Of a stretch of DNA of 64,000 nucleotides, positions 22,937 to 49,637 are shown in pieces. This DNA is from Eledone cirrhosa. Taxonomy: Eukaryota. Position numbers and translations under genes: made by a program. Positions within the stretch are counted from its first letter, which is position 1, and every line of letters begins with the position of its first letter. The notes under the pieces are model-generated. The model worked only from the letters and a program-made list of their open reading frames with translations. It searched no databases and had not been told where the DNA came from. The stretch is taken from assembly GCA_964016885.1 (NCBI GenBank), contig OZ024747.1, positions 24,800,001-24,864,000 on the forward strand, written 5' to 3'.

Positions 22937-25923
22937 TATTAAGACAGTGGGGAAGAAAAAATGGCTTCACTTGTGCTTTCAACAAATTTATTTTTTTCAC
23001 AAAATCCCAAAAGAATTTTTTCCGGATTAGAAAAAATTTTTTTCTTTTTCTTAAAAAAAAATTATTTTATAAATTAAGTTAGGTCTTAGGAGTTCTTGGT
23101 TAACGTAGGAGGTATTGTTTCGTTTTTAGAACGACATATCCTCATCATTAAAAAGGGGAAAATATCATAACGGACCTATTTTGCAAACCCACTGACACAC
23201 ACCAATACTTAAATTTCCGTCAGCACACCCCTCACATACGAAAAGGAACATTCCCTTCAACATGGCAAGGCGCATCTGCACTATAGCAACACACCCCGTA
23301 CTACAAGAAAAAAGATTATGTGACCTGAAAAAATTCCTTAAAAAACAAGAATACCCGATGAAACTCATCAACGCAGCCATCTCCAAGGCTAAGAACATCC
23401 CAATAACAACACTGAGAAAACCAAACCCACAACATAAAAAAGAAAACCCTGCTATCTCTTTTGTCATCACTCACAATCCAGGGAACATCAACATTGTGAA
23501 AACTGCTCAGCAGTATCTCCCGATTCTACAGCAATCTACCAAAATGAATGCACTCTTAAAAAACACAGATAATTGATAGCAGACGCCAAGCACCCAACCT
23601 TAAAAAACTAATTACCAAGGCAAAATTTACGACCAACATGGAATCAATGCAAGTGACGAAATGCGGGGACCCTAGATGTGGAACCTGTGAACTCATCGAA
23701 GAGGGCAAACAGTTGTCCTTCAAAAACCATGATAATTTCAAGGTCAATGCAAACATGAACTGCAAAACGAAAAACCTAATATATTGCGCAACATGTCCAC
23801 AGTGTAAAGAGTATTACATTGGGGAAACCGGAACGGGATTACATGATAGAGTCCGGGTACATAAACAACAAATTAAAGACCCCACAGTCAGAAATACCAC
23901 ATATAGCACACATTTTGCATAATGCGGGAAGTGAAAATTCACAATCTTCCCTTTCTTCAAGATATGGTCGGATAACGAACATTTCCGCAGATATAAAGAA
24001 GAATTCTTCATTGAAAAATTTAAACCACTACTGAACACGAAAAAATGAATTAACACTCGGAGGTAAAATTCCATTTCACTACCCCCACCCCTCTTCTTAT
24101 GTGTACACATGAATATCTGAGTGAACGGTGAGACACACACATATATGTGTGTAGGTATGTATGGATGTATGTACGTGTGGGTATATATGTATGTGGGTGT
24201 GTGTATGTGTATGTGTGTATATATATGTATGGATGTGTGTATGTGTGTGTGTATATATATATATATATATATATATATATATGTGTATGTGTGTATATAT
24301 ATGTATATATATATATATGTATGTATGTGTATGTTTGTGTATATATATATATATGTATATATATATATATATATATATATATATAGATATATAGATATAT
24401 GTTTAAATGTGTGTGTGTATGTATATGTATGTCTCTATATATATGTGTGTGTTTGTATGTATGTGCATATATGTATATATGTGTGTATATATATATGTAT
24501 ATATATATATATATATATGTATGTATATATGTGTCTTTATGTGCTTGTGTGTACACACATATATATATATATATATATATATATATATATATGTGTGTAT
24601 GTATGTGTGTGTATGTATATATATGTATATATATATATATATATATATATGTGTGTGTGTATGTATATGTATGTGTGTATATATGTATGTGTGTATGTAT
24701 GTACTTGTATGTGTATGTGTATGTATGTATATGTATATATATATATATATATATATATATGTGTGTATATATATATGGATATATGTATATGTGTATATGT
24801 ATGTATATGTGTGTATGTGTCTGTATGTGTTTATGTGTACATATATGTATGTATATATGTATGTATAAATATATATATATATATATATATATATATATAT
24901 ATATATATATATATATATATATATATATATATATATATATATGTGTGTGTGTGTATGCCTCTCTCTCTATATATATATGTATATATATGTATGTGTGTGT
25001 GTGTGTATGCATGTATGTGTGAACGGAGGTATATATACGGACATATGTATATGTGTGTGTGTGTGTGTACACGTGTGTGTGTGTGTGTGTGTGTATGTGT
25101 GCGTGTATGGGTATATATGTATATTTAGTTATGTATCTTTATTTATGTATATGTATGTATGTATATATATATATACCCATGTGGAGGTATGAGTACATAT
25201 TCGTGTGTGTACGTATGTGTATATGTGTTTTTATATGCGTTTTTATATGTTTTTGTGTATGTATGTGGATGTATATGTACATGGGTGTGTGATTGATGGT
25301 ATGTGCCTATATATTCCTACATATACCCGTGTGTGTATGTACGTATATACGCACATATATGTGTGTGTTGAACAAAGGACTAATTTTGGGATGGATGTAG
25401 AAAAATTCTTCAGAAAAAAATAATTGTTTACAAACTTGGCAGGTGCGATTTGCCTGTGACCATTCTTAACACAAAGGAATCTCCTGAATAAAGGAATTTT
25501 TCGAGAATGACCGGGGCAGGCCGCACTTGCTACATTTCTCCCCACCTAACCCTACTAACCGTTTCAACTCATTACTGCTATTAACACTTTTTCAACACAC
25601 CTACACCCATACACTTATTAAAAGGGGGGAAAAAAACCCACCACACCACAGACATGTTAAATCCCTATATATAGAACAACACACCACATACACATCAGTT
25701 TGACAAGCGCACCTCAGCGTGAAAGGTCGTTCTAAAAACGAAACAATACCTCCTACGTTAACCAAGAACTCCTAAGACCTAACTAAATTTATAAAATAAT
25801 TTTTTTTTAAGAAAAAAAGAATTTTTTTCTAATCCGGAAAAAAATTCTTTTGGGATTTTGTGAAGAAAATAAATTTGTTGAAAGCACAAGTGAAGCCATT
25901 TTTTCTTCCCCCCTGTCTTAATA
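22937..25923 (+). mobile_element. 5'-truncated Neptune-type PLE: inverted pseudo-LTR piece (22937-23136), decayed RT thumb + GIY-YIG (23160-24048), microsatellite-rich 3' UTR, pseudo-LTR
   Basis: KPTDTHQYL..SAHP..NIPFNMARRICTI; CGDPRCGTC..NCKTKNLIYCATCPQC..YIGETG; 22937-23136 is the reverse complement of 25725-25923. Confidence 0.85.
25697..25784 (+). ncRNA. Variant type I hammerhead, family G (UUGACAA core, extended stem III)
   Basis: agt TTGACAA gcgc acctca gcgt GAAA ggtc[gttct..aacg..cgtt..agaac]gacc TA act; stem I is only 3 bp. Confidence 0.65.
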
Positions 25924-25957
25924 TACCTAACTGTACCAAGGATTACACACATTTTCC

Positions 25958-27180
25958 AATATATATAAGTATATATATATATATATATATGTATATATAT
26001 ATATGTATATATATATATGTATATATATATATATATATATGTGTATATATATATGTATATATATATATATGTATATATATATATATATATATATATATGT
26101 ATATATATATATATATATATGTATATATATATATGTATATATATATATGTATATATATATATATATATATATGTATATATATATGTATATATATATATAT
26201 GTATATATATATATATATATATATATGTATATATATATATGTATATATATATGTATATGTATATATATATATGTATATATATATATATATGTATATATAT
26301 ATATGTATATATATATATGTATATATATATATATATGTATATATATATATATGTATATATATATGTACATATATATATATATGTATATATATATATATGT
26401 ATATATATATATATATATATGTATGTATATATGTATGTGTATATATATATATGTATATATATATATGTATATATATATATGTATATATATATATGTATAT
26501 ATATATGTATATATATATGTATATATATATATGTATATATATATGTATATATATATATGTATATATATATGTATATATATATATGTATATATATATGTAT
26601 ATATATATGTATATATATATATGTATATATATATATATGTATATATATATGTATATATATATATATGTATATATATATGTATATATACATGTATATATAT
26701 ATATGTATATATATATGTATATATATATATGTATATGTATGTATATATATATGTATATATATATATGTATATATATATATATGTATATGTATATATATAT
26801 GTATATATATATATATGTATATATATATATATATCTATGTATATATATATGTATATATATGTATATATATATATATCTATGTATATATATATGTATATAT
26901 ATGTATATATATGTATATATATATATGTATATATATGTATATATATATATATATATATGTATATATATATATGTATATATGTATATACATATATATATGT
27001 ATATATATGTATATATATATATCTATATATATGTATATATATATATGTATATATATATATGTATATATATATATATGTATATATATATATATGTATATAT
27101 ATATATGAATATATATATATGTATATATATGTATATGTATATATATATATGTATATATATATATATATATATGTATATAT
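25958..27180. repeat. Interrupted (AT)n microsatellite
   Basis: Direct inspection. Confidence 0.97.
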
Positions 27181-47837: not shown

Positions 47838-47892
47838 ACTGCTATATATATTTCAATGACAGTCATCTTTGGCTGTGACCTCTTCAGGCAGT
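47838..47892 (-). ncRNA. Type I hammerhead, family K
   Basis: Minus: actgc CTGAAGA ggt.acag.ca aaga tg.ctgt.att GAAA tatata TA gcagt. Confidence 0.82.
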
Positions 47893-48241
47893 TTGAATTA
47901 GTATGGTATAGACAAGTACATATGTTGTTTAGGTGTATGATATTGTCAATACTCTGATATGCCCAGTTCCTTGTTGGGTTGTTAATTCACTGGGGAACTG
48001 GAGTCATATATATATGTATATATATATATATGTATGTATATATGTATATATATATATATATATGTATATATATATATATATATATATATATATATATATA
48101 TATATATATATATATATATATATATATGTATATATATATATATGTATGTATATATATGTATGTATATATATATATGTATGTATATATATATATATATATA
48201 TATATATATATATATATATATATATATATATATATATATAT

Positions 48242-49637
48242 AATATATTTAGAAACACACAGATACATGCGGACACACACATATATACATGAATGCATCC
48301 GCACCCAACTGTGAGTTAAGGGTGCCAACTTCACCGATGTTGCTCAATGAATGACTGGGACAGACCAATTCAGTTGAACTAGACTGAACCAGTATCAGAG
48401 TTAAAAATACATTATGAAGAGAGAAGAAACATTTAGATATAATTAGTAATAAAAAGTATCATACCTAAGCTGCTCCTAAATTCCTCGACTACGTAGTTTC
48501 GTGGCATAAACAAAAACAATATATCAAAGATATAGAGTCCTTGCGAGGTCTGCCGACTTATCAAGAGGATACCTCATTTTACTAGTCTCAAGAACGCGTC
48601 TACACGACGTGAGAAAGAATCCCAAAAGGCGGAGGGGGAGATAGTCACGCGATATAACGGTCGAGAAACAGAGCTAAGCCTCTTATAACCACGAAGAAAA
48701 TACCACGGAGGCGGAGGGGGTATTCATATCGAGGCCGTAGAAGAGGTGGTGAAGAAGGCGAAAAGTATGAGTAATGGAAGCTTTCCAGTTGTCCCCACAC
48801 TTCAAAGATTGCTCGACCAGAGGGAGTTATTAACAATATATTTAGAAACACACAGATACATGCGGACACACACATATATACATGAATGCATCCGCACCCA
48901 ACTGTGAGTTAAGGGTGCCAACTTCACCGATGTTGCTCAATGAATGACTGGGACAGACCAATTCAGTTGAACTAGACTGAACCAGTATCAGAGTTAAAAA
49001 TACATTATGAAGAGAGAAGAAACATTTAGATATAATTAGTAATAAAAAGTATCATACCTAAGCTGCTCCTAAATTCCTCGACTACGTAGTTTCGTGGCAT
49101 AAACAAAAACAATATATCAAAGATATAGAGTCCTTGCGAGGTCTGCCGACTTATCAAGAGGATACCTCATTTTACTAGTCTCAAGAACGCGTCTACACGA
49201 CGTGAGAAAGAATCCCAAAAGGCGGAGGGGGAGATAGTCACGCGATATAACGGTCGAGAAACAGAGCTAAGCCTCTTATAACCACGAAGAAAATACCACG
49301 GAGGCGGAGGGGGTATTCATATCGAGGCCGTAGAAGAGGTGGTGAAGAAGGCGAAAAGTATAAGTAATGGAAGCTTTCCAGTTGTCCCCACACTTCAAAG
49401 ATTGCTCGACCAGAGGGAGTTATTGGGATTCTTTCTCACGTCGTGTAGACGCGTTCTTGAGACTAGTAAAATGAGGTATCCTCTTGATAAGTCGGCAGAC
49501 CTCGCAAGGACTCTATATCTTTGATATATTGTTTTTGTTTATGCCACGAAACTACGTAGTCGAGGAATTTAGGAGCAGCTTAGGTATGATACTTTTTATT
49601 ACTAATTATATCTAAATGTTTCTTCTCTCTTCATAAT
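48242..49637 (-). repeat. 593-bp tandem repeat x2 plus inverted partial copy (49423-49637); HHR-bearing, non-coding
   Basis: tttagaaacacacagatac at 48248 and 48841; the inverted segment is the reverse complement of the unit centre. Confidence 0.92.
49479..49566 (+). ncRNA. Variant hammerhead, family L (UUGAUAA core, branched stem II; minus copies 48482-48569, 49075-49162)
   Basis: tcctc TTGATAA gtcggca[two hairpins]tgccac GAAA ctacgtag TC gagga. Confidence 0.8.

Follow-up and report, generated by a model that had tools for sequence, protein, structure and literature searches.

U3-A8 in place of the C3-G8 core pair in three hammerhead families of a Penelope-like element nest in Eledone cirrhosa

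Three hammerhead families with a U3-A8 core

The stretch of DNA analysed here, below called the window, covers 64,000 nucleotides of Eledone cirrhosa (GenBank assembly GCA_964016885.1, contig OZ024747.1, positions 24,800,001 to 24,864,000 of the forward strand; position 1 is its first letter). Microsatellite of the (TA)n type makes up about 19 kb of it, and the GC content of its 2-kb bins varies between 8 and 47%. Embedded in the (TA)n sequence is a nest of Penelope-like elements (PLEs), with remnants of reverse transcriptase (RT) and endonuclease and with terminal repeats in tandem and in inverted arrangement, as described for PLEs (PMC8557442; this and the other published sources are cited from excerpts). 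In this nest sit three families of hammerhead ribozyme motifs, G, J and L, which carry U3-A8 instead of the C3-G8 pair (PMC3884650) in their core. The features of the three families, including an open reading frame (ORF) next to G, are:

22939..23135, - strand: inverted copy of 25726-25921, 96% identical, abutting the 5' break of the ORF
23137..24048, + strand: decayed PLE ORF, 5'-truncated, RT thumb and GIY-YIG endonuclease, with in-frame stops and a frameshift
25697..25784, + strand: type I hammerhead G; 3-bp stem I (AGT/ACT), core TTGACAA 25700-25706, stem II 25707-25720, GAAA 25721-25724, long stem III (5+5 bp), U16.1 at 25780, H17 = A25781
45964..46010, - strand: hammerhead J again, in an identical copy; core at 46006, C17 = 45968
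47096..47142, + strand: hammerhead J; stem I TGCC/GGCA, core TTGAAAA 47100-47106, stem II GTCC/GGAC, C17 = 47138
48290..49424, - strand: L unit of 593 nt repeated head to tail, with 99.8% identity over 542 nt and (TA)n borders
48482..48569, - strand: hammerhead L of the second tandem unit, with its core at 48564 and C17 = 48487
49075..49162, - strand: hammerhead L of the first tandem unit, with its core at 49157 and C17 = 49080
49479..49566, + strand: hammerhead L in the inverted arm 49423-49641; core TTGATAA 49484-49490, C17 = 49561

The original prediction had placed the three cores at 25700, 47100 and 49484, with complete stems, GAAA and a UH site. We found them at these positions on the + strand; after each core come, in this order, stem II, GAAA, stem III, the UH site and the second strand of stem I. 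It had counted three U3-A8 hammerheads; all three are present, but three further copies lie on the - strand (cores at 46006, 49157 and 48564), so that the window holds six copies, one of G, two of J and three of L, with the J and L copies identical over the motif. All six read N3-UGA-N7-N8-A...GAAA...UH, with the Watson-Crick pair U3-A8 and H = A or C, and in all six three helices surround the core with stem I open, in G marginally. To call the stems complete was generous: the helices are there, but the 3-bp stem I of G is off the minimum free energy (MFE) fold, stem III of the J monomer closes with 2 bp and stem II of L is bulged.

The three families differ in their architecture. G has a 4-bp stem II (domain of 14 nt) and a long, non-palindromic stem III, and an inverted arm is present. 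J has 4-bp stems I and II, a stem II domain of 20 nt and an 8-nt self-complementary stem III with G-U pairs; its arms, 45913-46160 and 46946-47193, are an inverted 248-nt pair at 99.6% identity, and J is thus an inverted pseudo long terminal repeat (pseudo-LTR) pair. L combines a 5-bp stem I (TCCTC/GAGGA) with a 57-nt stem II domain, in which 2+4 bp flank the bulge, and a perfect 10-nt palindromic stem III. No mutual local similarity was detected between the 290-nt neighbourhoods of G, J and L (z 0.1, 1.6 and 0.2).

These motifs were identified with a type I hammerhead descriptor that leaves positions 3 and 8 free, together with a visual reading of repeat families. At a score of 30 or more the window gave 13 descriptor matches (7 C-G, 6 U-A), and 60 local shuffles gave 15 (0.25 per window; 2 U-A, no C-G). 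In Rfam, where the Hammerhead_1 consensus has C3-G8 and short stems, J was matched to that family at E 0.022, its 20 bits falling short of the gathering score of 34; for G and L no hammerhead match was returned at E<=10, and none of the three reached the gathering score. Scanning the whole window yielded only microsatellite-driven Rfam matches among the best 150 of 570 rows. As predicted, a CUGANGA search misses G, J and L, that is 3 of the 13 window families. Since Rfam finds none of them at threshold either, a hammerhead census calls for descriptors of the YUGANRA type.

Covariation of positions 3 and 8

The 13 hammerhead families accepted in the window comprise ten with C3-G8, three with U3-A8 and none with U3-G8 or C3-A8 (Fisher p=0.0035). 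A metagenome scan added 14 loci of the Neptune type, the PLE clade to which the G element is assigned below. In seven of these a hammerhead lies 107-445 nt past the endonuclease, with C-G in six loci and U-A in one, L351; in L350 a hammerhead is also found upstream. In the other seven of the 14 no convincing hammerhead was found. Window families and metagenome loci together give 16 C-G, 4 U-A and no single-mismatch family of either kind (Fisher p=2.1e-4). Both tests treat families as independent, which they are not fully. Among the window families with C-G, stem I of B is 2 bp long and stem III of E is non-palindromic, and C, with 2-bp stems II and III, is uncertain; without C the window value becomes p=0.0045. 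The counts support the predicted view that U3-A8 replaces the tertiary C3-G8 pair in a compensatory way, with the two positions covarying among PLE hammerhead families. The absence of single-mismatch families points to selection on the source elements.

Several further matches were dropped before the families were counted. Single-mismatch cores rejected as chance were CTGACAA at -10772 of the window (stem II folding energy 0, 2-bp stem I), TTGAAGA at +2343 of L353 (inside the ORF) and CTGAAAA at -1712 and -1665 of L357 (antisense); TTGAGGA near 8517 (-) and 63299 (+), seen by eye, had no stem II. U-A look-alikes at -323 and -47949 of the window and at -106 of L351 were likewise discarded as chance, as were a second C-G match in L349 and matches with other letters at position 3 or 8.

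The G element and recurrence of the swap

The translated and aligned ORF at G has a Cx4CxxC linker and a CCHH motif in its C-terminal GIY-YIG endonuclease. Neptune elements are defined by a CX2-5CxxC linker and CCHH (PMC8557442), and judged by this motif the ORF is of the Neptune type. Its closest named relatives are mostly bivalve proteins (54-66% identity), which by itself would make a mollusc the probable host; no PLE relatives were found in the viral contigs or genome contigs searched. The inverted copy at 22939..23135 starts inside stem III, hence without the hammerhead core, and because it abuts the truncated ORF it ties the G region to the element. Among the three families it is only for G that the hammerhead lies in the terminal repeat of an element with RT and GIY-YIG endonuclease; a tblastn search with 14 window ORFs (E<=1e-3) found no PLE ORF linked to J or L, and 38 homologues used as queries gave no significant PLE protein match to J and L (best E 0.19).

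A protein tree was built from the thumb and endonuclease region (23 rows, no named reference PLE elements; L354, L357, L358 and the window 8890 remnant excluded). G falls within a starred ten-row clade that contains L345 (C-G), while L351 (U-A) is sister to L348 (C-G) with support 100/100. The tree requires two state changes, and the approximately unbiased (AU) test rejects G plus L351 as one clade (p 6e-34). On this protein phylogeny it is supported that the swap between C-G and U-A took place two or more times in Neptune-type elements, barring an exchange of ribozyme modules. As J and L have no protein to place on the tree, support for recurrence is limited to the Neptune type. The idea of a recurrent double change in unrelated families thus holds for at least two changes on the Neptune-type tree, but not for separate origins of G, J and L, which are unsupported: pseudo-LTRs that cannot be aligned can still share an ancestor.

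The L unit and its reads

The 593-nt L unit has a GC content of 42%, and its longest ATG ORF encodes 76 aa. The palindromic stems III of J and L form self-duplexes of -9.7 and -12.9 kcal/mol, respectively, and two L copies cofold to a dimer with swapped helix III (-57.3 versus -21.8 kcal/mol per monomer).

We compared the L unit (48850-49420) with 4 of 24 sequencing runs; none of the 24 consists of raw RNA reads, and the four are of DNA or of unstated kind. In run X1, 1,397 contigs map to the unit, with a summed depth of about 45,000-630,000 per bin; this depth, which is not a copy number, indicates that the L family is very abundant. No alternative letter appears in the core 49151-49157 among the best-supported 40 of 105 difference rows. 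Diverged contigs (10-15 other letters per about 100 nt) align only over 49075-49172, which coincides with the hammerhead (49075-49162), and a diverged group of X22 reads has 12 listed differences between 49103 and 49147 and none listed in the core. Since the core is unchanged in the listed read differences, U3-A8 appears to be the state of the family and not decay of the window copies. The head-to-tail joint of the L unit is found in four X22 DNA reads and one X5 contig; as it stands in DNA reads too, the joint is no proof of an RNA circle. X22 read ends were considered as cleavage sites and rejected as artefacts of restriction-site associated DNA sequencing (RAD-seq).

In X5 and X6, runs labelled as other organisms, the L unit occurs as one contig with 6-7 other letters, at depths of 36 and 105. 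The X5 contig is a circular permutation in which the stretch around the cleavage site, 49066-49118, is absent. These contigs might stem from close relatives, from carry-over or from transfer.

Viral hammerheads

Viral contigs from IMG/VR were scanned with a fixed stem II pattern, with expectations taken from shuffled flanks. For C3-G8, at least 112 hammerheads were complete among at least 129 matches (at least 126 loci), and for U3-A8 it was 5 of 67 matches, with 1.5 expected. The original prediction had named single mismatches as frequent as U-A as an outcome that would speak against it. Outside PLEs this is in part what the phage contigs gave, as set out below; the PLE families did not give it (0 of 20).

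Discussion

Our preferred reading, which we consider probable, is that G, J and L are type I hammerheads in the pseudo-LTRs of PLEs (Neptune type for G) or in non-coding derivatives of them, and that C3-G8 changed to U3-A8 per source element. By analogy with the dimeric hammerhead model for PLEs (PMC4209133, PMC6765202), transcripts of tandem copies would fold as dimeric hammerheads, with the palindromic stems III of J and L pairing between two copies. Cleavage after H17 would then release unit-length RNA (593 nt for L), which might be reverse-transcribed into (TA)n sites. The long stem III of G may permit cleavage as a monomer. U3-A8 would keep the tertiary pair that positions nucleotide 8, probably reached via two transitions (C to U, G to A) with a U-G wobble intermediate, and it may cut more slowly than C-G. 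Selection would act on the ability of source elements to spread, and most genomic copies, including the decayed element of G, are probably dead passengers.

A number of observations weigh against this reading. In the viral scan U3-G8 was complete at least 4 times among at least 120 matches (1.9 expected) and C3-A8 in 2 of 31 (0.7 expected), so that in phage hammerheads single mismatches are about as common as U-A. One phage stem II family (loci L026, L095, L100, L212) even contains all four states of the 3-8 pair: C-G at least 27 times, U-G at least 4 times, U-A once and C-A once. In pairwise mutagenesis of a type III hammerhead, as far as the excerpt of PMC9901934 reports, rescue was seen only for the C-G to G-C swap, and other double mutants in the region had low activity. 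Within our own data, family acceptance was partly by eye, the J dimer cofold does not show the hammerhead fold, and the start positions of the diverged X22 reads are few in number. L copies with C3 or G8, if rare, may still exist beyond the best-supported 40 of the 105 difference rows. PLE modules have been swapped within the window, as seen in the ORF 12309-14276 described below, and the protein tree may not track the ribozyme.

That last point bears on a different history, in which one old U3-A8 lineage, or a swapped ribozyme module, gave rise to G, J and L; the pair would then be conserved, but the change would not be recurrent in this genome. J and L lack a protein that would place them, pseudo-LTRs diverge past alignment even between C-G families, and the same ORF shows module exchange. 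Yet a single clade of G and L351 is impossible on the protein tree, and the three families have no helix in common: stem III is either long or palindromic, and the stem II domain measures 14 nt in G, 20 nt in J and 57 nt in L. We regard this single origin as a possibility to be kept in mind, although a doubtful one. It is still less likely that the motifs merely keep their fold while being catalytically poor or inert, with U3-A8 arising by A+T-biased mutation in master copies that spread independently of cleavage. Both changes are indeed transitions toward A+T in a window of 8-47% GC, PLE hammerheads are weak cleavers in vitro (PMC4209133), Naiad PLEs spread without hammerheads (PMC8557442), and rescue by U-A is absent from the mutagenesis set cited above. 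However, drift predicts more single than double changes, while none of the 20 accepted PLE families has a single mismatch; the hammerhead is the best-conserved stretch in the relatives of L, and according to the excerpt of PMC3088659 covaried ribozymes are active in vitro, the title of the source it cites for this stating that tolerance depends on surrounding elements.

For G one has to ask in addition whether the descriptor matched by chance within the terminal repeat of a PLE. Alone of the three families, G has a score exactly at the descriptor threshold (30), a level reached 0.25 times per shuffled window, and identification of G leans on context for that reason. The 3-bp stem I is missing from the MFE fold (-12.9 kcal/mol, versus -8.3 kcal/mol for the full hammerhead fold), 1.65 kb separate the motif from the ORF stop, there is no Rfam match, and the long stem III is unlike the 6-nt palindromes of seven related loci. 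The context, on the other hand, makes a chance match very unlikely in our view: just two U-A matches arose in 60 shuffled windows, G lies in a repeat that is duplicated at the 5' end of the element, and in related elements, too, a hammerhead follows downstream of the ORF, its stem I often having 2-3 bp. Most of the sequence between the ORF and G is microsatellite, and stem III extends by 5 bp more.

U3-A8 occurs in the hammerheads of Cercyon PLEs of Schistosoma mansoni, about 1,300 of which were found when a dedicated descriptor was used (Cervera and De la Pena 2014, PMC4209133), and natural examples were reported by Perreault et al. (2011, PMC3088659), who noted the same compensatory core change in several of them. 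The variant and its descriptor are thus already published for PLEs, and G, J and L are further families, not a new kind of ribozyme. As in our window, the Cercyon PLEs have a type I hammerhead with U3-A8, a short stem I and a palindromic stem III in flanking repeats, nearby copies on opposite strands, and a dimer model. Unlike them, our families belong to another host and to other families; J has a canonical GTCC/GGAC stem II, and L a 57-nt stem II domain and a 10-nt palindrome. A long stem III like that of G is reported in PMC4209133 for fungal and protist PLEs. Whereas U3-A8 is called rare in PMC3088659, here it occurs in three of the 13 window families and four of the 20 PLE families. The Neptune clade (Craig et al. 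2021, PMC8557442) shares with G the CX2-5CxxC linker, the CCHH motif, an inverted 5' pseudo-LTR copy and the targeting of microsatellites; the G copy differs in being 5'-truncated and decayed, and its clade is set by motif, not against a reference PLE tree.

In sequence terms L resembles a non-LTR retrozyme. Like the metazoan non-LTR retrozymes (PMC7229834; bioRxiv 10.64898/2026.07.22.740005) it repeats its unit head to tail, with one type I hammerhead in each, has a GC content under 50% and encodes no PLE protein. In contrast to their monomers, for which a range of 150-450 nt is given (PMC7229834), its unit measures 593 nt; it also has an inverted arm in the style of PLEs, and it is known here from DNA sequence.

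By title or the start of the abstract we found no paper mapping U3-A8 on the PLE tree, in a coverage that is incomplete and does not include Lunse et al. 2017. The three families add to a published variant and are of modest importance in themselves. They provide a small quantitative case that selection acts on the 3-8 pair of PLE hammerheads and that this pair has flipped on more than one occasion, and they bear on the question whether weakly active motifs must cut for an element to spread. Tentatively, one might go further and suppose that in dimeric PLE hammerheads U3-A8 is a second stable state, taken by about 1 in 5 families, reached repeatedly and without lasting single-mismatch intermediates, unlike in phages, where U3-G8 persists, and that L is a retrozyme-like element of 593 nt which, with a core of this kind, rose to very high abundance. 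If this were true, the families would be a natural series on a tertiary base pair crossing a fitness valley, and might tell whether U-A tunes cleavage down.

Other features of the window

An ORF at 12309-14276 (+; 655 aa, within 10808-14276) encodes a Neptune-type RT fused in frame to a Hydra-type (CxCx5C) endonuclease. The junction lies near 13788, and the endonuclease part is 98% identical to a separate copy at 37699-38184. The ORF is an apparent chimera between two PLE clades, which by its sequence would show module exchange. At least five distinct Hydra-type endonuclease remnants, 37-47% identical, are present in the window; few families are given in the description of this clade (PMC8557442). 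They are:

34372-35340, - strand: Hydra-type endonuclease remnant
36991-38187, + strand: Hydra-type endonuclease remnant
43604-44773, - strand: Hydra-type endonuclease remnant
53126-53644, - strand: Hydra-type endonuclease remnant
55686-56735, - strand: Hydra-type endonuclease remnant

Downstream of the Hydra-type endonuclease of the chimeric ORF, and likewise downstream of its separate copy, is a hammerhead-like motif with the core CAGAAGA, that is with A at position 4 (about 14461 and 38371, both +). It has a good stem II and a weak stem I, might be a decayed motif or a core variant, and stands outside the count of 13 families. A second candidate with a long stem III, at 15054 (-), has C3-G8, an 8-bp stem I and 2-bp stems II and III, with an apparent internal duplication within the stem III region. 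The C3-G8 hammerheads at 15707 (-), 16050 (+), 16674 (+) and 60461 (+) have a U-U mismatch at the opening of stem II, as also described in PMC3088659. At 2107-2157 a fold-back palindrome contains the 3' half of a hammerhead only (stem II, GAAA, palindromic stem III and a UC site) and has the appearance of an inversion junction within a ribozyme.

Upstream of a PLE RT, a 512-nt direct repeat at 59041-60065 is 95% identical and richer in G+C; no hammerhead was found in it, and another structured RNA is possible. Two elements of the long interspersed nuclear element (LINE) type, with endonuclease and RT (Pfam RVT_1, Exo_endo_phos), lie at 2774-6928 (-) and 38653-41687 (-), and a portion of the former is copied at 31147-32306. 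Finally, 1438-1674 is a sequence like a short interspersed nuclear element (SINE) with a tRNA-like head, which presumably resembles octopus SINEs.

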